Shown here one piece after another: positions 691-18,393 of a stretch of DNA of 26,169 nt. The stretch is from a virus: the UHGV virus genome UHGV-0156931. The stretch is one strand, 5' to 3'. Numbering within the stretch: the stretch's first letter is position 1; the number at the start of each line of letters is the position of its first letter. Under the pieces are notes generated by a model, which saw nothing but the letters and a program-made list of their open reading frames with translations, was not told where the DNA came from and did not search any database. Position numbers and translations under genes: made by a program.

Positions 691-1743
691 TTACGGGGTA
701 ATGCCAACCGCTGCCGCCACTTTGTCGCCACTTGGCAGCGTTGCCAGAGGATTGAAACGGAGCGCCGTTTCCAGATGATCCGGTGCCAGATGTGCGTAAC
801 GCATAGTCATTTTTATATCGTGGTGTCCGAGAATTTTTTGTAAGGCCAGAATGTTTCCACCCGACATCATGAAGTGCGCCGCAAACGTATGGCGCAGAAC
901 GTGTGTGAGTTGACCGCGAGGGAGCACGATAGACGTTTTTTCCATCACGGATAAAAATTGAAAATAGCAGTCTGTGAAGAAATTGAACCCATCAAGCGCC
1001 ATGATCTCTTCGTAAAGCTCTTTACTGATAGGGATGCTTCTGTTTTTCTTCCCCTTCGTTCTTACAAAGGTAATTCGGTATTTGGTCACCTGTGAGCGGG
1101 TAAGATTTACGGCTTCTCGCCAGCGTGCGCCTGTGCTTAAGCATATCTTAACTACCAGTGCCAGAATTGGCTCCTGACGTTTGCAATCAGCCAGTAATTC
1201 AACAATCTGCTCATGGGTAAGCCATGCCATCTCTTTTTCTGCGATGGTGAATTTTCGCATGTTCTCCAGTGGGTTCGGATACGACCATTCGCCCAGGCGG
1301 GATAGTTCGCTAAAAACACTACTTAGATAGCTTTGCTCCAGGTTAATGGTGACCGGGCTTGCTCCTTTCTTCCATTTCTCGCTGAAGTAGATCTCACCTG
1401 TCAGGCGTTTATCTCGATAGTGGGCAAACATTTTAGAGGTTAGATCAGTTGCAAGGGGATTGCCCAGAGCGTCAACCATCAGCAGCAATTTGTCATAGAC
1501 ATGCTGCCCAGCAGTCAGAGATTTACCATGTAGTTTGAACCATAGCTCAACCACGTCTTTCAGTGTTCGACGATCCACTGATTCACCCAGCCAGGGCTTT
1601 GCTTCGGTTTCTTCCATCGTGTGACGCTCAAAAGCCAGTGCTTCGCCTTTGGTGGCGAATTGTTTACGCACACGACGCCCACTACGTCCGGCGGGGTAAC
1701 ATTCGCAAAGCCATTTTCCTGTGGTGAGTTTTCGTACAGCCAT
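691..1743 (-). CDS. int: Tyrosine integrase, P2/186 Int type
   Basis: ORF 691..1821; the internal ATG at 1743 gives MAVRKLTTGKW..., colinear with the P2 Int N-terminus as recalled. C-terminal catalytic region has R...HxLRHT...Y (LTHVLRHTFA...MRYAHL). 3-prime end abuts host DNA, as expected for attL. Confidence 0.93.
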   Translation of the reverse strand: MAVRKLTTGKWLCECYPAGRSGRRVRKQFATKGEALAFERHTMEETEAKPWLGESVDRRTLKDVVELWFKLHGKSLTAGQHVYDKLLLMVDALGNPLATDLTSKMFAHYRDKRLTGEIYFSEKWKKGASPVTINLEQSYLSSVFSELSRLGEWSYPNPLENMRKFTIAEKEMAWLTHEQIVELLADCKRQEPILALVVKICLSTGARWREAVNLTRSQVTKYRITFVRTKGKKNRSIPISKELYEEIMALDGFNFFTDCYFQFLSVMEKTSIVLPRGQLTHVLRHTFAAHFMMSGGNILALQKILGHHDIKMTMRYAHLAPDHLETALRFNPLATLPSGDKVAAAVGITP

Positions 1744-1822
1744 AAAAAATGCCCTCCAGTGGAGAGCATTTTTACTGTATATATAACCAGTGTCAATGTA
1801 TGAATTTGTATAGCCATACATA

Positions 1823-3154
1823 TCACTGAAGTAAAAAAACTTTTAAAGCATCTTTCACAATATTTGTTGGTTCACCAATACCGCCACTACCTTTTAAAAA
1901 ATGGTATTCACTCATTTCTGCCCATTGTCTTTTTATATTTTCCTCAGTAGGTAAAAGAGATGAGTTTTCAGATAAGTATTTGTAAACTATTCCAAATATA
2001 GCATATTCATAATTATCTACATTATATTCACTTGTTTGATATGAAAATTTAGACAAACCAAACAATTTCATGATTGATTGAGCATCAACTTTATCTTCAA
2101 GAAAGTTGAGAGCTAACTCTCGGTTAAAAGTGTAGATTATTATCGCTAGAGTCCTGTAATAACAATATCCATAAATATATTTGTTGCTAATTTTGTCGCC
2201 TGATAGTAGTTGGTATATTTCAACATATCTAGCAAGTGTTTCAACCTCACGTAATGATAATTTACTACTTTCAATGAACTGTAAGAAAATATCTTCGCTG
2301 GCTTCTACTGCAGCGGTCAGCCTTTCAGATTGCTCACATAGCATCATCCAATGATTTTTGGAAGTTAAAGTGTCATTATAATTATCTTCCTTAAAGGTAA
2401 CAGGAAGGCTGTATGTAAATTTTATAAATTTGTCAAGATAACGGTTGGAGTCTACAGAAGAGCCATAGATATGATTTATGGATGCTTTTAGTTGAGTTGT
2501 GTTTGCAATTAATAAAAAGTTAATGTTTTTTATATCAAAAACATGTTTTATATTTTCAATAATAGAAATGGCAAAACTAGGCTTACATCTGTCTAACTCA
2601 TCTATAATTATTGTTAGTTTACTTTCTCCAGCTAATTTGGTTAGTACTTCTTTTAGAGCAAGAACGTTCTTTTGTGCCTCGATATGATCTTCTAACAGAG
2701 CCTCGATGGTTCCATCGATAGCTGAATTTGCAGCGTCTTTGATAACCTCTTCAAATTCCTCATTAATTTCATCCGCATTTTGTTTTAATACCCAACCAGC
2801 ACCAGCTTTGAGTACAGTCTTAAGTCCGAATCTGAGGGCTGGTAATGCCTTAGATATTAATTCCTTTTTTTCATCGCTATTATATAGAGCTGCAATTGCG
2901 GCCATTATTGTAAGTATGGGAGCATCGTTGTGATCTTCAGTAAAAGCATCTATATAAACTACTTTATGATTGGTCGAGTTTATTTCAATTAAGGATGCTA
3001 ACTTTTTTGAAAACTCTGTTTTTCCAGTCCCCCAGTCCCCATCTATGACCATAGGTGAAACAGGAATATTAGACTCTAGCAAACTTATTATTTTTTCTGC
3101 AATGGCTTTTCTTTTATATTCATCACGTATATCGAAAGTTATATCTGTGCTCAT
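1823..3154 (-). CDS. KAP-family P-loop NTPase (accessory cargo in the lysogenic operon)
   Basis: 443 aa. Walker A GDWGTGKT (GxWGxGKT/S is the KAP signature), Walker B IIIDELDRC. RBS AAGGAAA upstream of the ATG at 3154. Visibly AT-rich compared with the phage backbone. Sits between cI and int. Confidence 0.8.
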   Translation of the reverse strand: MSTDITFDIRDEYKRKAIAEKIISLLESNIPVSPMVIDGDWGTGKTEFSKKLASLIEINSTNHKVVYIDAFTEDHNDAPILTIMAAIAALYNSDEKKELISKALPALRFGLKTVLKAGAGWVLKQNADEINEEFEEVIKDAANSAIDGTIEALLEDHIEAQKNVLALKEVLTKLAGESKLTIIIDELDRCKPSFAISIIENIKHVFDIKNINFLLIANTTQLKASINHIYGSSVDSNRYLDKFIKFTYSLPVTFKEDNYNDTLTSKNHWMMLCEQSERLTAAVEASEDIFLQFIESSKLSLREVETLARYVEIYQLLSGDKISNKYIYGYCYYRTLAIIIYTFNRELALNFLEDKVDAQSIMKLFGLSKFSYQTSEYNVDNYEYAIFGIVYKYLSENSSLLPTEENIKRQWAEMSEYHFLKGSGGIGEPTNIVKDALKVFLLQ

Positions 3155-3365: not shown

Positions 3366-4022
3366 TTATCTAACATACTTAACTGTTAAGCTTATAATTT
3401 TTCCAATTATTTCAACATCTTCTATCTTGCACTCGAAGGCTCTGTTTCCACCTTCAACGAAAATTCTTCCACCGGGTAAACGAGTGATGTCGCGGATTGT
3501 TATTTCGCCATCAATACTTATTACCCATTTACCATCACGTATATCATCAAATTCTTTATCACAAATAAATTCAGAATTGTTATCTGTGATGACAAAAGGT
3601 TTTTTAAACGTAGAGGGTAGAAATCCCTTATCAAAAATATAAAAACCGTCTTCCTGCAATGCTCCATCAGACAATAAATATTTTACTACTTCTATAGTAT
3701 TTGTATTTGCTGATGCTTGCTTTGAACCATGCCCTGTTGTTAGCCAATTAAGCGAGGTACCCGTTTCAAGGGCGCACTGGATTACCCAATCTGCCGGAAA
3801 AATATCACGCATATAACGCGTTGCCATGGTGCTCTTAGAAACACCTAAATGATCACAGAGAGCCTGACGGGTACCGAACCCGTATGCTTCAACCAAACGT
3901 TCTATGGCTTTCTTACCGCCGCTATTGAAATCCACAAATCCTCCAAAGAAATCCAAAATTCGTTGACAGATTCCAAAAGCGATCTTAAAGTTGAACCAGA
4001 AGTCTTCTTTTGGAGCCTTCAC
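3366..4022 (-). CDS. cI: Immunity repressor, 186 CI type (N-terminal HTH)
   Basis: 218-aa ORF starting at GTG 4022. Segment ERLVEAYGFGTRQALCDHLGVSKSTMATRYMR...CALETGTSLNWLTTGHG matches the HTH region pattern of 186-type CI as recalled. First gene of the leftward operon ending in int. True start may be internal. Confidence 0.8.
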   Translation of the reverse strand: MKAPKEDFWFNFKIAFGICQRILDFFGGFVDFNSGGKKAIERLVEAYGFGTRQALCDHLGVSKSTMATRYMRDIFPADWVIQCALETGTSLNWLTTGHGSKQASANTNTIEVVKYLLSDGALQEDGFYIFDKGFLPSTFKKPFVITDNNSEFICDKEFDDIRDGKWVISIDGEITIRDITRLPGGRIFVEGGNRAFECKIEDVEIIGKIISLTVKYVR

Positions 4023-4284: not shown

Positions 4285-4348
4285 TAGACGTCTATTTTCG
4301 CAATAAGACGCTGAGTTCGATTTTGCGATAAGTTCGGAATTGAAAACC

Positions 4349-4858
4349 ATGTTTGATTACCAAGTTTCCAAACATCCACATTTTGATGAAGCCTGTCGTG
4401 CATTCGCACTGCGCCACAACCTGGTGCAGCTGGCAGGACGTGCAGGAATGAATGTGCAGATTCTGCGAAACAAGTTGAACCCTGCTCAACCTCATTTATT
4501 AACCGCACCAGAAATTTGGCTGCTTACCGATCTGACTGAAGATTCGACGCTGGTAGATGGCTTTCTGGCTCAGATTCACTGTCTGCCATGTGTACCGATT
4601 AATGAGGTAGCAAAAGAGAAACTGCCACATTACGTCATGAGTGCAACCGCAGAGATCGGACGTGTTGCTGCAGGTGCGGTATCTGGCGATGTAAAAACCA
4701 GTGCAGGTCGTCGTGATGCTATCAGCAGCATTAACTCTGTAACACGACTGATGGCGCTGGCTGCTGTTTCATTGCAGGCCCGTTTACAGGCTAATCCTGC
4801 GATGGCGAGTGCAGTTGATACCGTGACTGGCCTCGGTGCTTCATTCGGTTTGCTGTGA
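4349..4858 (+). CDS. cII: CII-type regulator (phage 186 CII / CP76 family)
   Basis: ORF 4340..4858 begins at TTG; the ATG at 4349 gives 169 aa starting [12 protein letters not shown]..., matching the recalled length and N-terminus of 186 CII. Immediately follows apl. Confidence 0.85.
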
Positions 4859-5685: not shown

Positions 5686-5748
5686 ATCATTTGCATCGCT
5701 GCTGGTAAAACAAAGCCCGGCAATGCACTACGGTCACGGCTGGATCAT
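5686..5748. repeat. 63-bp direct repeat, copy 2
   Basis: See copy 1. Here the repeat supplies the 5-prime part of ORF 5723..5965. Confidence 0.85.
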
Positions 5749-5965
5749 GGGTGAGGATGGTAAACGCTGGCATCCATGTTATTCACAAGATGAATTGCTG
5801 TCTGAAGTGACCACGAGGAAACGGAGAAAGTCCAAATGTATGCGGCAGAAAGTGAAGTGGTTTATCAGTTTCGTTACAGAGGGGATAGTTATTCAGTACC
5901 TGAAGATGATTTGCTCTGTTGTTATCCGTCGTTGTCGGGCGATGGCAGTTACTTTTTCACACTAA
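5723..5965 (+). CDS. Small early ORF (80 aa), second paralogue of the fil-like gene; extent uncertain
   Basis: MHYGHGWIMGEDGKRWHPCYSQDELL... parallels the copy at 4866 beyond the identical DNA (GKKWHP versus GKRWHP). No good RBS. 3-prime half overlaps ORF 5836..6060 in another frame. Confidence 0.3.
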   Translation: MHYGHGWIMGEDGKRWHPCYSQDELLSEVTTRKRRKSKCMRQKVKWFISFVTEGIVIQYLKMICSVVIRRCRAMAVTFSH

Positions 5966-6491: not shown

Positions 6492-6725
6492 ATGCGTAAT
6501 ATTGAAACCCTCACGACTAAAACCGGACCGGATGATGCAGGGCTTAATATTTTACTGACAGAGGCTCGTCTGGAAGAACGCCGGGCAAGGGCTGAAGCAA
6601 TGGCAGCTCGCCTTGATAGCCTGGCGTGTCATATCTCATCCCTTCAGCTAAACCACGTGGAAGCAGCAGAACTACTGCGTGTAACTGCTGAAGCAATCCA
6701 GAACGAAGCGCAGGAGATCCACTAA
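6492..6725 (+). CDS. Hypothetical early protein (77 aa, predicted helical)
   Basis: ATG at 6492 with AGGAG upstream (ORF 6486 begins at TTG). Stop overlaps the next start. Confidence 0.5.
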   Translation: MRNIETLTTKTGPDDAGLNILLTEARLEERRARAEAMAARLDSLACHISSLQLNHVEAAELLRVTAEAIQNEAQEIH

Positions 6726-6952
6726 TGGCTGATGCAATGGATCTCGTACAGCAGCGCGTTGAAGAAGAACGCCAGCGCCATATTCGTGCTGCCCGTGCCA
6801 AAACACCGGGCGTGTCTCGCGTGCTTTGTATTGAATGTGAAGCGCCAATTCCGCCAGCACGACGCCGCGCCATTCCGGGAGTGCAGCTTTGCATTACCTG
6901 CCAGGAAATCGCAGAGCTGAAAGGCAAACATTACAACGGAGGTGCTGTATGA
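6725..6952 (+). CDS. TraR/DksA-family C4 zinc-finger protein
   Basis: 75 aa with CIEC-x17-CITC, the spacing typical of the TraR/DksA C4 zinc finger. Translationally coupled to neighbours on both sides. Confidence 0.75.
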   Translation: MADAMDLVQQRVEEERQRHIRAARAKTPGVSRVLCIECEAPIPPARRRAIPGVQLCITCQEIAELKGKHYNGGAV

Positions 6953-7806
6953 GCACCATCCTGAAATGGGCGGGAAATAAAACCGCCATTATGTCCGAAC
7001 TGAAAAAACACCTTCCTGCTGGCCCGCGACTGGTTGAACCTTTCGCGGGTTCCTGTGCTGTGATGATGGAGACGGATTACCCCAGCTATCTGGTTGCGGA
7101 TATTAATCCTGATTTAATCAACCTCTATAAAAAGGTTGCCGCTGATTGTGAATCGTTTATATCTCGCGCCAGAGTTTTATTTGAGATCGCAAACAGGGAG
7201 GTGGCTTATTACAACATAAGGCAGGAGTTTAATTACTCCACTGAAATTACTGATTTCATGAAAGCGGTATATTTCCTGTATCTCAATCGTCACGGTTACC
7301 GTGGTTTATGTCGCTATAACAAGAGCGGGCATTTCAACATTCCCTACGGTAATTATAAAAATCCGTATTTCCCTGAAAAAGAAATTCGCGCATTTGCAGA
7401 AAAGGCCCAGCGAGCAACGTTTATCTGCGCCAGCTTTGATGAAACGCTGGCGATGTTGAAGGCGGGGGATGTGGTGTATTGCGATCCGCCGTATGACGGT
7501 ACGTTTTCCGGCTATCACACTGACGGCTTCACTGAAGATGACCAGTATCACCTGGCATCTGTTCTTGAACATCGGTCATCAGAAGGACATCCGGTCATTG
7601 TTTCTAACAGTGACACATCCCTGATCCGTTCGCTGTATCGCAATTTTACTCACCACTACATCAAGGCAAAACGCAGCATCGGTGTGGCAGCTGGCGAGGG
7701 TAAATCAGCAACAGAAATCATTGCTGTTTCCGGGCCGCGCTGCTGGGTGGGATTTGATTATTCGCGTGGCGTGGATAGTTCTGCCGTGTACGGAGTACGT
7801 GCATGA
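6949..7806 (+). CDS. dam: Orphan DNA adenine methyltransferase (Dam-like)
   Basis: ATG at 6949 gives [11 protein letters not shown]... (285 aa). SAM-binding motif FAGSCAV and catalytic DPPY (VVYCDPPY). No adjacent restriction endonuclease gene. Confidence 0.9.
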
Positions 7807-10217
7807 GTCATGCCGATATGAACAACTGCTGCGGCTTTAACGAGGCTGCCGCAGCATTCTCATGGAACAGCCCGAAAAAGGCCATTAACCCTTATCTGGA
7901 CCCGGCGGAAGTTGCGCCGGTTTCTACGCTTTCAAACCTGATCACTCTGTACGCTGCCGATAACGAGCAGGAACAGTTGCGCCGCGAGGCACTGAGTGAT
8001 CAGGTCTGGGAGCGTTATTTCTTTAATGAATCACGTGATCCTGTCCAGCGCGAAATGGAGCAGGATAAGCTCATTAGCCGGGCAAAGCTGGCGCATGAGC
8101 AGCAGCGTTTTAATTCAGACATGGTCATTCTGGCGGACGTCAACGCCCAGCCTTCCCATATCAGCAAGCCGCTGATGCAACGTATTGAATACTTCAGCAG
8201 CCTGGGCAGGCCAAAGGCTTATTCCCGCTATTTACGTGAGACGATTAAGCCATGTCTGGAACGACTGGAGCATGTACGCGACAGTCAGCTATCTGCATCT
8301 TTTCGCTTTATGGCAAGCCATGAAGGGCTGGACGGCCTGCTGATCCTGCCTGAAATGAGTCAGGATCAGGTGAAACGCCTGTCCACCCTGGTAGCTGCGC
8401 ATATGAGTATGTGCCTTGATGCAGCTTGTGGTGATTTGTATGCCACCGATGACGTTAAGCCAGAAGAAATCCGCAAGACATGGGAAAAGGTGGCAGCGGA
8501 AACCCTGCGTCTGGATGTCATCCCACCTGCGTTTGAGCAACTCCGTCGGAAAAGAAACCGCCGTAAACCCGTGCCCTATGAACTCATTCCGGGTTCGCTG
8601 GCGCGTATGTTGTGCGCCGACTGGTGGTATCGGAAATTATGGAAGATGCGTTGCGAATGGCGGGAAGAGCAGTTGCGCGCTGTTTGCCTGGTCAGCAAAA
8701 AAGCATCTCCTTATGTCAGCTATGAAGCCGTGATGCATAAACGTGAGCAGCGCCGTAAGTCGCTGGAGTTTTTCCGTTCTCATGAACTGGTGAACGAAGA
8801 CGGCGACACGCTGGACATGGAGGATGTGGTAAACGCCAGCAGCAGCAACCCTGCGCATCGCCGCAATGAGATGATGGCCTGTGTTAAAGGTCTGGAGCTT
8901 ATCGCGGAAATGCGCGGTGACTGCGCCGTTTTCTACACTATCACCTGTCCGTCGCGTTTCCATTCCACGCTAAATAACGGCAGACCAAACCCGACCTGGA
9001 CAAACGCGACGGTAAGACAAAGCAGCGATTATCTGGTCGGCATGTTTGCTGCATTTCGTAAGGCGATGCACAAAGCCGGGTTGCGCTGGTATGGCGTGCG
9101 GGTGGCTGAGCCGCATCATGATGGCACAGTTCACTGGCACCTGTTGTGTTTCATGCGCAAAAAAGACCGCCGTGCCATCACTGCATTACTGCGTAAGTTT
9201 GCCATCCGTGAAGACCGCGAGGAGCTGGGCAATAACACTGGGCCGCGCTTTAAGTCTGAGTTGATTAACCCGCGCAAAGGAACGCCGACAAGCTACATCG
9301 CGAAATATATCAGTAAGAACATTGACGGTCGTGGTCTGGCTGGCGAGATCAGCAAGGAAACGGGTAAATCTCTGCGTGATAACGCTGAATACGTGAATGC
9401 CTGGGCGTCTCTGCATCGTGTTCAGCAATTCCGCTTCTTTGGTATTCCGGGGCGTCAGGCTTACCGTGAACTTCGCTTGCTGGCTGGTCAGGCGGCAAGG
9501 CAACAGGGTGACAAAAAAGCAGGTGCGCCGGTACTGGATAACCCGCGTCTTGATGCCATTCTGGCTGCTGCTGATGCTGGTTGTTTTGCCACCTACATCA
9601 TGAAGCAGGGCGGCGTACTGGTTCCCCGTAAATATCACCTCATCAGAACCGCTTATGAAATCAACGAAGAGCCGACCGCCTATGGCGATCACGGCATTCG
9701 TATTTATGGCATCTGGTCACCCATTGCAGAGGGCAAGATCTGCACTCATGCAGTGAAGTGGAAAATGGTTCGTAAAGCCGTTGACGTTCAGGAGGCGGCA
9801 GCCGACCAGGGCGCTTGCGCCCCTTGGACTCGTGGCAATAACTGTCCCCTTGCTGAAAATTTGTACCAACAAGGGAAAGACAAATCAGCTGATGGAGATA
9901 CCAGAACGGATATCACCCGCATGGATGACAAGGAGTTGCACGATTACCTGCACAGTATGAGCAAAAAAGAGCGCCGGGAACTGGCAGCAAGGTTACGCCT
10001 TGTGAAACCGAAACGGCGTAAAGACTACAAACAGCGAATTACAGATCATCAGCGACAGCAGCTCGTGTATGAACTGAAGTCCAGGGGATTTGATGGCAGC
10101 GAGAAAGAGGTCGATTTACTGCTTCGCGGCGGCAGTATTCCGTCAGGAGCAGGCCTGCGTATCTTCTATCGGAACCAGCGTTTGCAGGAAGATGATAAGT
10201 GGCGAAACCTGTATTAA
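7803..10217 (+). CDS. A: Replication initiation endonuclease (P2 gene A family, rolling-circle)
   Basis: 804-aa ORF, last and largest gene of the early operon, start overlapping the dam stop. Size and position fit P2 gpA. Family assigned by synteny and length; catalytic residues not mapped. Confidence 0.85.
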
Positions 10218-10310
10218 TTACGCGGGTTAACAATTCGTGCCCTTAATAATACCAGGCATATCAGGCTGATGAGCATAAAAAAAACGTTTTACATCAGTAA
10301 GATTATTATA

Positions 10311-10330
10311 TACTGTAAATATAAACAGTG
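10311..10330 (+). promoter_or_regulatory. LexA (SOS) box overlapping a promoter
   Basis: taCTGTaaatataaACAGtg fits CTGT-N8-ACAG (consensus TACTGTATATATATACAGTA). TTTACA (-35-like) lies 17 bp upstream of TACTGT. About 40 bp upstream of the ORF at 10371. Confidence 0.6.
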
Positions 10331-10370
10331 GTTATGTATACAGTATTGCTTTGGTGTCATAGGAGGAAAG

Positions 10371-10559
10371 ATGCAGGACTATTTTTTGGAGTCTTTGAAG
10401 CTCCAGCGCATTGATTTTTTTCTTAAGCTTGTAGCGGCTAGTGAGTGTAGTGATGAAGAGAAGGGGCTGGCCCTGCAGTGGGTTTCTGAACTGACAGATG
10501 AACTCATGGCAAAAATCAGAACCCACGAATACAACCGCTCAATGGATGTCATCAGCTGA
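10371..10559 (+). CDS. Small SOS-regulated protein (62 aa), possibly the N-terminal part of a Tum-like antirepressor
   Basis: ATG at 10371 preceded by AGGAGGAAAG. First gene after the LexA box. Ends 10 nt before the DinI-like ORF, which is in another frame. Confidence 0.5.
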   Translation: MQDYFLESLKLQRIDFFLKLVAASECSDEEKGLALQWVSELTDELMAKIRTHEYNRSMDVIS

Positions 10560-10569
10560 GGTGACTTTT

Positions 10570-10803
10570 ATGCGCATTGAAATAATGATCGATAAAGAGC
10601 AGAAGGTTAGCCAGTCTACACTGGACGCCCTTGAATCCGAGCTTTACCGCAATCTGCGCCCCCTGTATCCCAAAACGGTAATTCGTATCCGCAAAGGTAG
10701 CTCTAACGGTGTGGAACTGACCGGACTGCAACTGGACGAAGAAAGAAAACAAGTGATGAAAATTATGCAGAAGGTGTGGGAAGACGACAGCTGGCTGCAT
10801 TAA
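10570..10803 (+). CDS. DinI-family protein (DinI-like, possibly the C-terminal module of a Tum-type antirepressor)
   Basis: 77 aa; MRIEIMIDKEQ...LDALESEL...KIMQKVWEDDSWLH aligns by eye with E. coli DinI (MRIEVTIAK...IDALAGEL...ILQETWESADDW). GAGGTG RBS. Downstream of the LexA box. Confidence 0.8.
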   Translation: MRIEIMIDKEQKVSQSTLDALESELYRNLRPLYPKTVIRIRKGSSNGVELTGLQLDEERKQVMKIMQKVWEDDSWLH

Positions 10804-10935
10804 GAAACGTTGCTGGCGTCTGAACTTGCTTCTGGCGTCAGCAAGGTTGAACAACGAGCTGTGCGAGGCGTTAGCTCTGTGGTGCATGTCTATGCCGCAT
10901 GAGATCGCATGATCGTTTGAGGATCGTTTTTGCTA

Positions 10936-10964
10936 AGGCCTGCCAGAACTGGCGGGCTTTTGTG
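10936..10964 (+). terminator. Putative intrinsic terminator after the SOS module
   Basis: GCCTGCC-agaact-GGCGGGC stem (one G-U pair) followed by TTTTGTG. Three GATC sites cluster just upstream. Coordinates +/-2. Confidence 0.35.
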
Positions 10965-11006
10965 TAGATCATGCAGGTGCATGAAAACCACTACATAAAG
11001 CGGGCA

Positions 11007-11025
11007 GGCGTGGCGGGGATACGAG
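11007..11025. other. Candidate cos site (cohesive-end region)
   Basis: GGCGTGGCGGGGATACGAG: the first 13 nt match the P2/186 cohesive-end start GGCG(A/T)GGCGGGGA as recalled. Position relative to Q and P fits P2-family cos. Recollection-based. Confidence 0.35.
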
Positions 11026-11033
11026 CGCGCGCA

Positions 11034-11056
11034 TTGATTTCAAAAGATGAAATCAA
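11034..11056. promoter_or_regulatory. Palindrome TTGATTTC-N7-GAAATCAA upstream of the 565-aa cargo gene
   Basis: Perfect 8-bp inverted arms (11034-11041, 11049-11056) about 50 bp upstream of the ATG at 11103. Possible operator or promoter element. Confidence 0.3.
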
Positions 11057-11102
11057 GTGGTACGATAAGTAGGATTACTACCAATTCTCAAAGGGATGTC
11101 TC

Positions 11103-12800
11103 ATGCATAGAATTGTTAAAGCTCATCTTGATAACTTCGTGAAAAGTCACGGTATTGAAAATCATCAAGAGGACACGCAGTTCGAGCTATTTTGTAATAA
11201 AGCTTTGCTGTCTTCTCGTATAAGTATGGATTATGAAATTGACGATGTAACAACCGGGGCTGGTGATGATGGCATGGATGGTGTTGCCATCATAATTGAT
11301 GAAGAATTGTGTATATCTTCTGAAGATGCTACTTCAATATTTTCCTCATTACGTAAAAATCATGATGTTGATATTGTTTTCATTCAATCAAAGCGTAGTG
11401 AGTCTTTTGATTTAGGTGATTTTTTAAAGTTTAAAGCTTCCGTTTTTAGATTTATAGAGGATTCTCCTTACTTATGTGTGGATGAAATTCAAAAAAATGC
11501 AAGGGAAGTTTTTGATGTCATAATAAAAAATGTACCTAAGATAAGAGGTGGGCGACCAACTTTTACTGCTAAATATGTTGCAACTGGTTTATATAAAAAA
11601 CCTAAAGAGTTAGAGAATGCTCGGAAGTTATTTGCAAAAGAAATTGACGAGTTGGGATATTTCTGTAATGTTAGCGTTGAGTTTGTTGATCGTGATGAAT
11701 TAACACGTACTTGGATTGATACTTATTCAGTTGTCAATGCTGAATTGCCATTATTTAGTAATGCACCACTTCCCAAAATTAATGGTATAGAAGAAGCTTA
11801 TCTTGCTGTCGTTAAAGCAAAGGATTTTGTTGGTAATTTATTGATGACGGACGAGGGGTCTCTCCGTAATCATGTTTTTGTTGAGAACGTCCGGGCGTTC
11901 TTGGGAATTGATAATCCTGTTAACGCATCGATTGCTGAGACAATTAAAAATAAAGATGCCGCTTCACGATTTCCTGTTTTAAATAATGGAATAACAATTG
12001 TTAGTCCGGATGTAAAACTTCAAGGGAGTATTTTACATCTAGAAAATTTTCAGATAGTTAATGGCTGTCAGACATCAAATGTGCTTTACGAATGCCGCGA
12101 TTCCTTAGATGATACGATGATGGTTAACTTGAAAGTCGTAGAGACATTAAACGAAGATGTTTTTTCAGAATTGGTTCGAGCGACTAACAGTCAGACTAAG
12201 GTTGATGAGACTCAGTTCTATTCTCTTCGTCCAATAATAAAGAAAGTAGAAGCGTACTTTGATACTTATGAAGGGCAGGATGGTCGTTTATATTTAGAAA
12301 GACGTGAAAGACAATTTATCGGTAGAGATATACCTGCAGTTAGAGTATTTTCAGTTCATATGGCAGCTAAATGTGTAGCAGCTATGTTCTTCCGTCGGCC
12401 AGATCTTTCATACAGATACCCTAAAAAAATGTATGAATTGTTGGCTGAGAAAATATTTTCTAATGATACCAAGGAGATTGTATTTTATTCAGCATGTTTA
12501 ACATTATATAGATTACACTTACTTACTTCTAATGCTGATATTCCACAAAATATCAGGAAGTACAAATGGCATTTAATGGCGGTAGTTGGTGCTTTAATTG
12601 CCGGAAAGGATGTGCCTAATTTTGGCTCTAAGAAAATGGATGCGTATTGTAATAAAATCATCACTGAAATGACAAAGCATGGTGATAAAATAAAAGCTAC
12701 TTTCCAGAAGGCTGTTGATATTGTTTTGTCAATTGATGATATCACTGATGATAGAATGAAAAGGCAAGCTATTTTAGAGGAAATGCTTGCCAAGATTTAA
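11103..12800 (+). CDS. 565-aa cargo protein: Mrr-like PD-(D/E)xK nuclease N-terminus with an AIPR-like body; candidate abortive-infection/defence protein
   Basis: Intact ORF, RBS AAGGGA. N-terminal TGAGDDGMDGVAIIID...VDIVFIQSKRS resembles the GDxGxDG...QxK signature of Mrr-type nucleases. Later NGITIV...IVNGCQTSN motif recalled from AIPR-type proteins (unverified). No Walker A. Strongly AT-rich. Bracketed by terminators. Confidence 0.85.
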   Translation: MHRIVKAHLDNFVKSHGIENHQEDTQFELFCNKALLSSRISMDYEIDDVTTGAGDDGMDGVAIIIDEELCISSEDATSIFSSLRKNHDVDIVFIQSKRSESFDLGDFLKFKASVFRFIEDSPYLCVDEIQKNAREVFDVIIKNVPKIRGGRPTFTAKYVATGLYKKPKELENARKLFAKEIDELGYFCNVSVEFVDRDELTRTWIDTYSVVNAELPLFSNAPLPKINGIEEAYLAVVKAKDFVGNLLMTDEGSLRNHVFVENVRAFLGIDNPVNASIAETIKNKDAASRFPVLNNGITIVSPDVKLQGSILHLENFQIVNGCQTSNVLYECRDSLDDTMMVNLKVVETLNEDVFSELVRATNSQTKVDETQFYSLRPIIKKVEAYFDTYEGQDGRLYLERRERQFIGRDIPAVRVFSVHMAAKCVAAMFFRRPDLSYRYPKKMYELLAEKIFSNDTKEIVFYSACLTLYRLHLLTSNADIPQNIRKYKWHLMAVVGALIAGKDVPNFGSKKMDAYCNKIITEMTKHGDKIKATFQKAVDIVLSIDDITDDRMKRQAILEEMLAKI

Positions 12801-12852
12801 TTATACCTTGACATGTATATTAACGTGATTTTTTAAGTTGAATATCTAAGTA

Positions 12853-12884
12853 AAAAGAGTGCTTTTATTGTTAAGCACTCTTTT
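12853..12884. terminator. Bidirectional intrinsic terminator between convergent genes
   Basis: Perfect 12-bp inverted repeat AAAAGAGTGCTT / AAGCACTCTTTT with 8-nt loop, flanked by U-runs on both strands. Lies between the cargo gene stop (12800) and the Q stop (12888). Confidence 0.65.
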
Positions 12885-12887
12885 TTA

Positions 12888-13922
12888 TTAAGCTAACTCA
12901 AGGCTATATGTATTGAATTTAATAATGTCATCTTCTACCCACTCATTAATTTCTTTGATTCTTTCCTGTAAGGGGGTTAATTCGTTACGGACGAATACCT
13001 TGCTGGCTTTTTCAATATCGCCAAATCCACCAGTGTTTTGTGGAATAATGCCCATCATCTGCGGAGGAACTCGATGTGCTGCCATCATGTCATCGCGACT
13101 GACATTTTTGATATTCAGAAACTCATCCTTCGCCGCGACTTCTGACAACGGGATGATCTGAAGCCCGTCCTTTTTGCCGTTAGGCGAGTACATAAACAAA
13201 TTGCGGAAGTTGCCTGGACCTTTGGCACTTTTCATCGCGTTGCGGAGGTTGTTTACATCTTCCTGGTTTTGCGCGGCGTCGGTCATGTACATGATGAAGC
13301 CTGCATGACTGCCGTTAATGTAATACTTCCGGCGGAACAGCGTGGCGGACTCGTTGAGCAGGGCTGACGGAATGACAGAAAGATAGCCGGGCAGGCCGTA
13401 GATTTCTTGATTAATATCCGGCTCCATCAGGTGAAAAATGCTGCCTTTCGTGAACTGATACGGCTGCGTGGTCATGCCGTATTGCACAAACCAGTAGGTA
13501 TCCAGGTCTAACCCGCGTCGGGTGTATTTTGCCAGCGCAGGCTCAAGGGCGATAACTTCACCGAATCGGTTCGTGCGTTTCTCCAGGTAGGCGTTACCAA
13601 ATACCAGATAGTCCTGCACAAAACGCGAAAAAGCCTGCTGGCTGAGCAGCGGATGAGGGATATAGGTACTGGTCAGAATGTTGCATTTCACCGCAATTGG
13701 TGAACTGTGGTGCACGGCAGCGCGGAAGGTGCGCGCCAGTCCGTCAAAGCTGACGGGCGGCTCATACCAGCGATCTGTCTGTACGCATTCCACATAGTCC
13801 AGCAGTTCTCGGCGGTCCAGAACAGGAACGGGATCGCCGAAGCTGAATACTTCGGCTGTAGTCTGGCTTTTAAGCTGGATCTGTTTCGTCGCCGCAGCGC
13901 GGTTTTTCTTACTCTTTCCCAT
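12888..13922 (-). CDS. Q: Portal protein (P2 gpQ family)
   Basis: ATG at 13922 (ORF 13925 begins at TTG) gives 344 aa, the size of P2 Q. Start overlaps the terminase stop. Position next to cos and upstream of terminase P. Confidence 0.9.
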   Translation of the reverse strand: MGKSKKNRAAATKQIQLKSQTTAEVFSFGDPVPVLDRRELLDYVECVQTDRWYEPPVSFDGLARTFRAAVHHSSPIAVKCNILTSTYIPHPLLSQQAFSRFVQDYLVFGNAYLEKRTNRFGEVIALEPALAKYTRRGLDLDTYWFVQYGMTTQPYQFTKGSIFHLMEPDINQEIYGLPGYLSVIPSALLNESATLFRRKYYINGSHAGFIMYMTDAAQNQEDVNNLRNAMKSAKGPGNFRNLFMYSPNGKKDGLQIIPLSEVAAKDEFLNIKNVSRDDMMAAHRVPPQMMGIIPQNTGGFGDIEKASKVFVRNELTPLQERIKEINEWVEDDIIKFNTYSLELA

Positions 13923-15688
13923 CAAAAAATCTCCACAATATTGCTGGTATTGGCGGACTCGCCCTGCAGCGGTTCGTTAAACAGTGCGTGCATTGTTGCC
14001 CAGGCCAGATCGGCATGGCTGGTTTCTTCGCTGCGGCTGGCTTCATAGGTTGGGCGGTTGCCGCTGGCAGTGGTGGCGCGACGGATTGCCATAAAGGACT
14101 GCGCTATGTCGGTGTGCCCGGCGTCAAACTCTAGGCGGCGGTGGCTAATAATGTCGTAGGCCTTGAGTACCAGGGCGTTTTTAACGTTGGGGTTGTAGAC
14201 AAACTCCCGGACGGCAGGAAAAAACGCTTTCACGTTCTCGTAAACCCCGTGACCGACGCCGGTTGAGTCGATACCGATATATGTCACGTTGTACTGTTCG
14301 GTCAGTTTTTTGATGGCGTCAGCCTGGGCGCGGAAGTCCATTCCGCGCCACTGGTGACGCTCAAGAATGCGGAACTTACCACCTGGCACGGCTGGCGGTG
14401 CCACCACCACGCATCCGGCGCTGTCGCCGTTCTGCGTACCTTTTGCCGGGTCATAACCGATCCACACTTCGCGCCAGCCAAACGGGCGCAGCGCCAGTGC
14501 ATGAAAGTCGGTCCAGACTTCCCAGCTGTCTACCATGCACGCCTGCAGCTCGCTGAGCGGGAATACGGACGCGAGATCGTCCACGAACTCACACATCAGC
14601 AGATTCTGGTATTCGTCCGGGCTGTACTCCATGCGCAACTGGTCAAGGTCGAACAGGTTACATCCGCCGCGCACCGCATCTTCCACAGTGACTATCTGGC
14701 GGTACTGCCCGTCTGCGCACAGCAGGCCGGGGGCCAGATTGCTGTGGGACAGGTCGATGTCCACCTTATCGGCTTTGTTGCGCCCTCGGTTGAACAGCGC
14801 ACCGGACCAGAACGGATAAGCACTGTGTGTCAGGCTGGATGGCGTGGAAAAATAGGTCTGTCGCCATTTTTTGTGAATAGCCATACCGGAAGCCACTTTG
14901 CGCAGCTCCTGGAATTTCGGTATCCAGAAATATTCATCCAGATACAGGTTGCCGTGGTAACTCTGGGCCGTGCGGGCATTGGTGCCGAGGAAGTAAAGCG
15001 TGGCCCCGTTAGGAAGCACCATCGGATCACCTTTCAGCTCCACCTCGACTTCTTTGGCGAAATCGATGATGTACTGCTTAAAGACGTGAGCCTGTGCCTT
15101 ACTGGCAGAAAGGAAAATCTGGTTACGTCCGGTAAGCAGGGCGTCAATCAGGGCCTCACGGGCAAAATAGAAGGTCGCGCCGATCTGGCGTGACTTTAGC
15201 AGGTTGCGGATGCGGTTGGTTTTTCCGGCTTCCCACCAGTGGCGCTGGTAGTTAAACATGGAGGAATGGAAAATTTCTTCCAGCTTCTCAATTTGTTCAT
15301 CGGTGAAAACATTCTTTTCAGGCTGACGGCGTGGGCCTTTGTTGCGGTTGGCGACGTTAGGGTTTAAGTCGGCTTCGTTGCCGCCATTGTTAAACTTGCC
15401 GATCCGCGCGTGGCGCTCAGACTGGCGCGCCAGCAGGTCAATCTCTTTGAAATCTTTCCCTTCTTTGTGCTCCTTCATGATGAGCTGGCAGTAGCGTGCG
15501 GCGGTGGTGAGCTGCATCTGATCCAGCGGCCCATAGTCACCCCACTTGTCGCGTTTTTTCCAGCTGTGAACGGTTGCAACTTTCTCGCCCAGCATTTCAG
15601 CAATGCGGGCTACGCGGTATCCCTGAAAGTACAGCAGCATGGCCTGCCGACGGGGATCGAGATCTGCGGGTGTCAGTGTGGTGTTCAT
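13922..15688 (-). CDS. P: Terminase large (ATPase) subunit (P2 gpP family)
   Basis: 588 aa, divergent from O; size and position fit P2 gpP. Assignment by synteny and length. Confidence 0.9.
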   Translation of the reverse strand: MNTTLTPADLDPRRQAMLLYFQGYRVARIAEMLGEKVATVHSWKKRDKWGDYGPLDQMQLTTAARYCQLIMKEHKEGKDFKEIDLLARQSERHARIGKFNNGGNEADLNPNVANRNKGPRRQPEKNVFTDEQIEKLEEIFHSSMFNYQRHWWEAGKTNRIRNLLKSRQIGATFYFAREALIDALLTGRNQIFLSASKAQAHVFKQYIIDFAKEVEVELKGDPMVLPNGATLYFLGTNARTAQSYHGNLYLDEYFWIPKFQELRKVASGMAIHKKWRQTYFSTPSSLTHSAYPFWSGALFNRGRNKADKVDIDLSHSNLAPGLLCADGQYRQIVTVEDAVRGGCNLFDLDQLRMEYSPDEYQNLLMCEFVDDLASVFPLSELQACMVDSWEVWTDFHALALRPFGWREVWIGYDPAKGTQNGDSAGCVVVAPPAVPGGKFRILERHQWRGMDFRAQADAIKKLTEQYNVTYIGIDSTGVGHGVYENVKAFFPAVREFVYNPNVKNALVLKAYDIISHRRLEFDAGHTDIAQSFMAIRRATTASGNRPTYEASRSEETSHADLAWATMHALFNEPLQGESANTSNIVEIF

Positions 15689-17742: not shown

Positions 17743-18393
17743 ATGAGCCTGAGTCCCGCACGGCAGCATCGCCTGCGCGTTCAGGCTGAACAGGCCGCCC
17801 GCGAGGGCGGCAGTGTTCGCCACGCGTCGGGCTATGACCTGATGCTGCTGCAACTGGCGGAAGACCGCCGCCGTCTCAAGGGCGTTCAGTCCACGGTCAA
17901 AAAAGCGGAAATCAAGGTGGAGCTGCTGCCGAAGTACGCCGCCTGGGCAGAGGGTGTCCTGGCTGCCGGAGGCGCTCAACAGGATGACGTGCTGATGTAC
18001 GTGATGCTGTGGCGCATTGATGCCGGAGATTATGCCGGGGCGCTGGAGATCGGGCGTCATGCCCTGCGTCATGGCTGGGTGATGCCGCTGGGTAACCGCA
18101 ACGTGCAGACCGTGCTGGCAGAGGAAATGGCAGATGCAGCCCAGAGCGCAATGCTTGCCGCCACCGGCTTTGATGCCGATCTGTTGCTGCAGACGCTGGA
18201 GCTGACAGACGGTATGGATATGCCGGACCAGTCACGGGCGCGTCTGCATAAAGCGATTGGCGCTGTCCTGAGTGAAAACAATCCGGCGTCCGCCCTTAAT
18301 CATCTCAACCATGCGTTACAGCTCGATCCCCGCTGTGGCGTGAAAAAAGACAAACAGCAGCTGGAGCGCAGACTGCGCAATGACAGCCGCTGA
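17743..18393 (+). CDS. M: Terminase small/endonuclease subunit (P2 gpM family)
   Basis: 216 aa, follows N as in P2. ATG at 17743. Confidence 0.85.
   Translation: MSLSPARQHRLRVQAEQAAREGGSVRHASGYDLMLLQLAEDRRRLKGVQSTVKKAEIKVELLPKYAAWAEGVLAAGGAQQDDVLMYVMLWRIDAGDYAGALEIGRHALRHGWVMPLGNRNVQTVLAEEMADAAQSAMLAATGFDADLLLQTLELTDGMDMPDQSRARLHKAIGAVLSENNPASALNHLNHALQLDPRCGVKKDKQQLERRLRNDSR

Follow-up and report, generated by a model that had tools for sequence, protein, structure and literature searches.

A predicted P2-family cohesive-end site beside an AbiU-type cargo gene in a partial prophage genome

Does a 19-nt GC-rich motif upstream of a 565-amino-acid gene mark the end at which a phage genome is cut and packaged, and does the palindrome that follows the motif control that gene? 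Both questions arise at positions 10990 to 11060 of the 26,169-nucleotide stretch of UHGV virus genome UHGV-0156931 that we analyzed as a whole (here called the window). An initial annotation, made from the sequence alone, had read the motif as a partial match to the P2/186 cos site, the gene as cargo lying between cos and gene Q, and the palindrome as a possible regulator-binding site. In the explanation that we favor, with a probability of about 0.88, positions 10882 to 11032 constitute cos, an AbiU/AIPR cargo gene lies next to it, and the palindrome is incidental. We infer the actual cleavage, the use of the promoter, and the anti-phage activity.

Judged by its genes, the element is a P2-family (Peduoviridae) prophage whose immunity region is of the 186 type and whose cos and head region is of the Fels-2 type; only part of it lies in the window (Table 1). 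The order of gpA, the DinI/Tum-like gene, cos, the cargo gene, Q (minus strand), P (minus strand), O, N, M, and L reproduces the order and orientation of P2 and 186. The scaffold (O), capsid (N), small terminase (M), and head-completion (L) genes are all on the plus strand, and Q and P are transcribed toward cos, as annotated in P2 and 186. Both members of the P2-type terminase pair (i.e., large-subunit gpP and small-subunit gpM) were present in the window with Pfam matches. In the annotated genomes of P2 and 186, cos is located 167 to 176 bp from the stop codon of Q/W.

Two other genes of this prophage deserve mention. A KAP-family P-loop NTPase gene (1823-3154, minus strand) lies between the integrase and CI genes and matches the PADLOC candidate defense family PDC-S20 (E = 3e-171); judged from its sequence, this interval is a second cargo or defense slot of the same prophage. 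The orphan Dam-type adenine methyltransferase gene is directly upstream of gpA and overlaps it, an arrangement also found in Fels-2 and in the retron-Ec67 prophage.

Table 1. Positions of the genes and sequence features discussed in the text (window coordinates)
Feature	Position	Strand	Basis or detail
Integrase	691-1821	-	
186-type CI	3366-4022	-	
CII	4340-4858	+	
Fil	5723-5965	+	
Dam-type methylase	6889-7806	+	
gpA	7803-10217	+	
DinI/Tum-like gene	10498-10803	+	
cos cassette (predicted terminase recognition and cleavage region)	10882-11032	+	Conservation; alignment with P2, 186, and P4
GCATG/TGCAT repeat cluster	10883-10912	+	Starts at 10884, 10897, and 10907
GC-rich hairpin, then TTTTGTGT	10935-10965	+	Fold energy, -19.1 kcal/mol; z = -3.6
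Predicted cohesive-end sequence, 19 nt, GGCGTGGCGGGGATACGAG	11007-11025	+	Homology to annotated P2/186 ends
CGCGCGC, last conserved bases of the cos core	11026-11032	+	TGCGCGC in P2 and 186; CGCGCGC in P4
Perfect palindrome, TTGATTTCA-N5-TGAAATCAA	11034-11056		9-bp arms, 5-nt loop
Predicted sigma-70 extended -10 promoter of the cargo gene	11037-11066	+	Read by eye from the sequence
Cargo gene, 565 aa, AbiU-type/AIPR-domain abortive-infection protein	11103-12800	+	PADLOC, Pfam
Bidirectional rho-independent terminator, right edge of the slot	12852-12887		13-bp stem, A-run on one side, T-run on the other
Portal protein (P2 Q/186 W homologue)	12888-13925	-	Pfam Phage_portal
Large terminase subunit (P2 P homologue), predicted cos-cutting enzyme	13922-15688	-	Pfam Terminase_6N, Terminase_6C, Terminase_5
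Small terminase subunit (P2 M homologue), predicted to recognize cos	17743-18393	+	Pfam Phage_term_smal, E = 1.5e-40

The 19-nt motif was found exactly where the initial annotation had placed it. The P2/186 cohesive-end sequence given in that annotation agrees with the public records, in which P2 cosL (GGCGAGGCGGGGAAAGCAC) and 186 cos (GGCGTGGCGGGGAAAGCAT) both carry a cohesive-end annotation. The window 19-mer is identical to that of 186 over its first 13 nt and matches it at 15 of 19 positions in total, and it matches P2 at 14 of 19; its final six bases are TACGAG, versus AAGCAC in P2 and AAGCAT in 186. With up to one mismatch allowed, GGCGWGGCGGGGA occurred once in the window against an expectation of 0.04. 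Nucleotides 1 to 19 of the phage SEN8 record are identical to the window 19-mer and are annotated as a "putative cos site," and the genome announcement of SEN8 names the same 19-mer as the cos site, by annotation and without end mapping (PMC5427200). Similar cos variants ending in ACGAG have been reported for Smp131 and SEN4/SEN5, where they were assigned by analogy. Among phage records and papers, we found no mapped virion ends of the TACGAG type; P37, SI22, and Midge have P2- or 186-type ends. The record of the 186-like phage Midge (PV287706.1) stops partway through the cohesive-end sequence (...GGCGTGGCG), and its deposited termini are therefore probably not true cos ends.

The reading of the motif as cos gains from its surroundings, since it is embedded in a conserved P2-family cos core at the canonical map position. 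We collected 118 distinct related loci from phage records and IMG/VR sequences carrying the 26-mer at 11007-11032. Across these loci, the 151-bp block from 10882 to 11032 was about 95% conserved. Per-column identity was approximately 90 to 100% inside the block versus about 30% on either side, with sharp edges at both ends; positions 11007 to 11032 are identical by construction because the 26-mer was the search pattern. A megablast search of complete Escherichia coli genomes, which is independent of the 26-mer search, returned matches in 1277 of 5426 genomes. Among the matches listed, the right edge fell at window positions 11031 to 11038, and only six ran into the gene.

Alignment with the cos regions of P2, 186, and their relatives was the check that the initial annotation had suggested, and it showed that the core flanking the motif is shared as well. 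In the four-way alignment of the window, P2, 186, and P4, the core reads TGCATnAAAACC...AAGnGGGCn, the cut, GGCGwGGCGGGGA..., and yGCGCGC. Identity to the P2, 186, and P4 ends was 14 to 15 of 19 in the cohesive end and 6 to 7 of 7 in the adjoining GCGCGC segment. Past GCGCGC, it fell to 7 to 9 of 33 positions, which is the chance level, and the variable cargo slot begins at 11033/11034. From these comparisons, positions 11007 to 11025 are very probably the functional cohesive end of a P2/186/Fels-2-type prophage.

It could be argued that the motif is a relic or a look-alike, either with the true cos elsewhere or in a defective prophage that has no working cos. The assignment of this 19-mer variant rests on analogy with P2, and its last 6 nt are unlike those of both P2 and 186. 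Nevertheless, the motif is single in the window, the entire 151-bp block is conserved in more than 1000 prophages, and the genes for the portal, both terminase subunits, the scaffold, the capsid, and head completion are intact. The gap at 12800-12888, which the initial annotation had offered as an alternative location of the ends, turned out to be AT-rich and to hold the strong bidirectional terminator, with no cos-like sequence. We consider a relic highly improbable and retain the assignment of cos to the conserved block.

Within the block, sequence elements that terminase might recognize are concentrated on the side away from the cargo gene. In addition to the GCATG/TGCAT cluster listed in Table 1, extra copies start at 10970 (minus strand) and 10979, giving four copies on the plus strand and one on the minus strand in 125 nt, compared with about 0.15 expected per strand. 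TGCAT motifs occupy equivalent positions in P2, 186, and P4, and the repeats are presumably recognition sites for the small terminase subunit. The GC-rich hairpin is kept in relatives, as judged from conservation across the 118 loci. At the equivalent position, 186 and P4 have hairpins of other sequence, and P2 has no obvious one. The window hairpin looks like a terminator that would serve the DinI/Tum-like operon upstream; alternatively, it may contribute to cos recognition.

Two further observations concern the neighborhood of this block and its relatives. Outside the cassette, the sequence GTTGAACAACGAGC...GCGAGGCGTTAGC at 10846-10876 is common to phage 186 and some relatives; its 186 counterpart is located at about nt 30380 to 30410 of NC_001317, downstream of orf97. 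One IMG/VR contig (IMGVR_UViG_3300011853_000021) carries two cos 26-mers in opposite orientations (3440-3465 and 6704-6729). They sit in an inverted duplication, 940 bp long, 92% identical, and continued by outer arms, that is probably an assembly artifact or two head-to-head prophages.

Homology to P2 and 186 suggests how the site would work. The two terminase subunits would bind the repeat/hairpin part, on the right-end side of cos, and would nick the strands 19 nt apart, the top strand before 11007 and the bottom strand after 11025, so that the predicted staggered nicks would leave 5' overhangs. The left end of the virion DNA would begin with GGCGTGGCGGGGATACGAG, so that the packaged genome would start at 11007 with AbiU as its first gene. 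Nearly all of the conserved recognition sequence would thus lie on one side of the cut: in the predicted cassette, 125 bp belong to the right-end side, 19 nt to the overhang, and only 7 bp (CGCGCGC) to the left-end side. Because only seven conserved bases follow the overhang, the DNA from 11033 to the Q terminator would tolerate replacement, which would explain why this interval is a hotspot.

The distances around cos agree with a replaceable interval of this kind. Among 98 loci with the same cos type, the cos-to-Q distance was at least 300 bp in 85. Thirteen loci were "empty" (147 to 179 bp, as in P2 and 186), 15 had 300 to 1000 bp, and 70 had at least 1 kb. In the window, this distance is 1862 bp, as opposed to 167 to 176 bp in P2 and 186, because a gene has been inserted. 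The sequence immediately after CGCGCGC fell into 105 distinct types in 127 occurrences. Among the products that phage records annotate for this slot are a Hypoth_Ymh-domain protein, an "abortive infection protein," a reverse transcriptase, and an HNH endonuclease. For the opposite flank of cos, the DinI-to-cos distance was 205 to 207 bp in 27 loci, including the window, and larger in 61. Both distances vary, so that cos is a short conserved segment flanked by two variable slots. In the window, the DinI-cos side is empty (206 bp) and the Q side is filled. E. coli 30EVA1 (NZ_CP138423.1, 1355737-1362137) also has the other cos side filled, with a ComF-family gene and a hypothetical gene; cargo on both sides of cos in this strain indicates that the two slots can be occupied simultaneously.

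Most members of this lineage thus have a gene between cos and Q. The arrangement has been described since 1996 and is known from Fels-2 as well. A passage in PMC5694545 cites Dodd and Egan (1996) for retrons Ec67 and Ec86, which replace the cos-to-terminator DNA in a 186-related prophage; as presented there, the cosL-Q hotspot rests on that study and on Nakayama (1999). Other studies describe a "moron position 1" that lies between genes A and Q (PMC3573123) and a gpA-gpQ defense hotspot that adjoins cos (PMC9122126).

The right edge of the slot is formed by the terminator and the extreme 3' end of Q. The fold of 12795-12895 gave a z score of -4.4, and the terminator within it is common to the convergent AbiU gene and Q. 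This terminator is not homologous to the spacer of Fels-2, despite the same cargo gene there. Relatives become homologous again at a point between 12868 and about 12980. The motif lies in the P2-family cos core between the end of the early genes and Q/P, which puts the cargo gene at the left packaged end. Homology therefore supports the proposal that the cargo occupies the cos-Q interval, leftmost in the packaged genome.

The cargo gene itself could be named from its sequence. Its product matched PADLOC AbiU at full length (E = 4e-112, residues 2 to 563 of 565) and Pfam AIPR with 150 bits against a cutoff of 25 (E = 1.5e-43), and a ribosome-binding site, AAGGGA, is present at 11091-11096. STM2723.1 of Fels-2 is the same gene, at 84% DNA identity and at the same cos-Q junction. 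This cargo allele is rare in E. coli (7 of 5426 genomes). In one of the seven, strain 30EVA1, the DNA is 100% identical over the stretch corresponding to 11034-11600, and the AIPR gene is annotated as frameshifted. Among contigs representing one genome per species, only two Pseudomonas loci were found to carry AbiU relatives. AbiU has been reported from P2-like phages, along with other systems (PMC13586616). By its sequence, the gene is an AbiU-type defense gene in the classic cos-proximal slot, and the prophage presumably expresses it as a means of excluding other phages. The cargo unit would be self-contained, with a predicted promoter, the ribosome-binding site, and the bidirectional terminator; of these, the terminator is well supported and the promoter is a prediction.

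The remaining question is what the palindrome between cos and the cargo gene does. It stands where the initial annotation had located it, and the arms are 9 bp long rather than the 8 bp that had been read (TTGATTTC-N7-GAAATCAA). Because it begins at the first variable base, the palindrome is part of the cargo DNA and not of the cos core; it forms the first 23 bp of the cargo. The window holds seven matches to a perfect 9-bp-arm inverted repeat with a loop of up to 10 nt, two of which overlap each other at the 12852 terminator, versus 1.2 in Markov simulations. When the 70-nt leader was shuffled, an inverted repeat this good appeared in 0.3% of cases (P ~ 0.003). The palindrome is locally unusual, yet about one such repeat per window of 26 kb is expected by chance.

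The nine loci that have the cargo cassette present three leader variants, one of the window type and two of the Fels-2 type. The perfect dyad was found only in the window, in E. coli 30EVA1, and in the IMG/VR contig L136. The six Fels-2-type loci have AGCATGTCA (the form in Fels-2 itself) or AGCATGACA as the left arm, with five of nine bases matching the window arm. For six other E. coli genomes, the alignment starts at 11041 and leaves out the left arm. A scan of viral and metagenome collections with the right arm and the -10 region yielded six more loci, all beside the same cos, of which only L136 has the perfect dyad. Since the left arm differs in other alleles of the same cassette, the dyad is specific to one allele, and most likely it is an allele-specific feature that has no conserved role.

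Several specific functions were also considered for the palindrome. A rho-independent terminator was rejected: it would need a GC-containing stem ahead of a T-run, whereas here an AT-rich stem precedes GTGGTACG, and the terminator scan did not list it. As a site for FNR (TTGAT-N4-ATCAA), IHF, Cra, or LexA, it was judged by eye, against the consensus sites, to have misfitting spacing or orientation. An Rfam search of 10200-13000 with E values up to 1 gave no match.

The position of the palindrome gives some reason to think of transcriptional control. The predicted promoter consists of a -35 hexamer, ATTTCA (11037-11042), an 18-nt spacer, TG at 11058-11059, and a -10 hexamer, TACGAT (11061-11066), so that TGgTACGAT (11058-11066) is a candidate extended -10 element. 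Positions 11040 to 11069 are identical across all three leader variants; in the comparison with Fels-2, both flanks differ. This 30-nt identity to Fels-2 is unexceptional given intragenic runs of 29 to 53 nt, and we therefore gave it little weight in arguing for a promoter. At 18 nt upstream, the hexamer reads ATTTCA in the window, ATGTCA in Fels-2, and ATGACA in the third variant, where it matches the consensus at five of six positions. A consensus promoter scan did not list the extended -10 candidate, and its only prediction in the cargo leader overlaps the start codon.

As the palindrome covers the -35 element and the spacer of this candidate promoter, it might be an operator at which a dimeric regulator, encoded by the phage or the host or being AbiU itself, represses the cargo gene. 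The perfect 9-bp arms and their rarity among leader shuffles speak for such a site, as does the divergence of the left arm. Four of its nine positions differ from Fels-2, more than the 16% divergence found on average, and it is these substitutions that make the repeat symmetrical. Conservation argues the other way, as the dyad is broken in the six Fels-2-type loci and unaligned in the six E. coli genomes, and a chance origin has to be allowed for at the frequency given above. A half-site search found no second paired copy of the palindrome in the window, where half-sites were mildly enriched (16 versus 9.1 expected). No comparable dyad was present upstream of a Pseudomonas homologue, the cassette contains no regulator gene, and the promoter that the operator would overlap is itself a prediction that the consensus scan did not return. 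The idea of a regulator-binding site, as put forward in the initial annotation, is thus left without comparative support. The low P value in the leader leaves room for some function and the overlap with the predicted promoter for a regulator, and we regard an operator as unlikely. A more specific version, in which the dyad is a recently evolved operator and four left-arm substitutions relative to Fels-2 placed AbiU under a dimeric regulator in one allele, is more doubtful still. If true, it would be a small example of new regulation arising at a cargo-cassette junction.

The palindrome might instead extend the cos signal to the left of the cut, as a site for terminase or a host bending protein. 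It lies 9 to 31 bp from the cut. Moreover, 82 otherwise unrelated junction clusters share a weak composition signal over about 22 bp after GCGCGC (11033-11054 in the window), in which +1 is A or T in 94% of clusters and +11 is A in 70%. The information content of this signal is only 0.1 to 0.7 bit, however, and it does not spell the arms of the palindrome; P2, 186, and P4 are at chance-level identity there. Because 105 different sequences follow the same cos core, we rate a role of the palindrome in packaging as barely credible. The composition signal could reflect diverged remnants of an ancestral spacer or an undescribed soft requirement of cos. An incidental palindrome, carried in with one allele of the cargo, agrees best with these observations.

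The result is mainly of use for annotation, in that it would fix the ends of the packaged genome and names the cargo gene; it poses no challenge to current understanding. A modestly useful by-product is that more than 100 natural junctions delimit the Fels-2-type cos cassette to about 151 bp. These predicted limits could guide the design of cosmids or transducing particles.

The site has clear counterparts in known systems. Reportedly, Ziermann and Calendar described in 1990 a 55-bp cos core for P2, 186, PSP3, and the satellite P4. The window shares with these four a 19-nt GC-rich end starting GGCGWGGCGGGGA, the same upstream core, and GCGCGC downstream, and it shares with P2 and 186 the map place beside the convergent Q/P genes; unlike P2 and 186, it has an end in TACGAG and the longer cos-to-Q interval. 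A further close counterpart is the Fels-2 prophage of Salmonella Typhimurium LT2 (NC_010463), which has the identical 19-mer and flanks and an AbiU/AIPR gene between cos and Q. Fels-2 differs in the left arm of the palindrome and in the spacer that separates the cargo stop codon from Q, and it has an additional gene on the far side of cos. The record of SEN8 starts at the identical 19-mer, and SEN8 also has cargo between cos and Q. The cos-adjacent hotspot of P4 resembles the window in that its variable DNA starts right after the same core-ending GCGCGC, although P4 is a satellite that lacks the Q and P genes. P2 itself carries its old and tin cargo on the opposite side of cos, whereas the window has the Q side filled. 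In its arrangement, the window corresponds to the P2-like cos-proximal slot, in which self-contained foreign defense cargo of highly variable content lies between the cos core and the portal-gene terminator.
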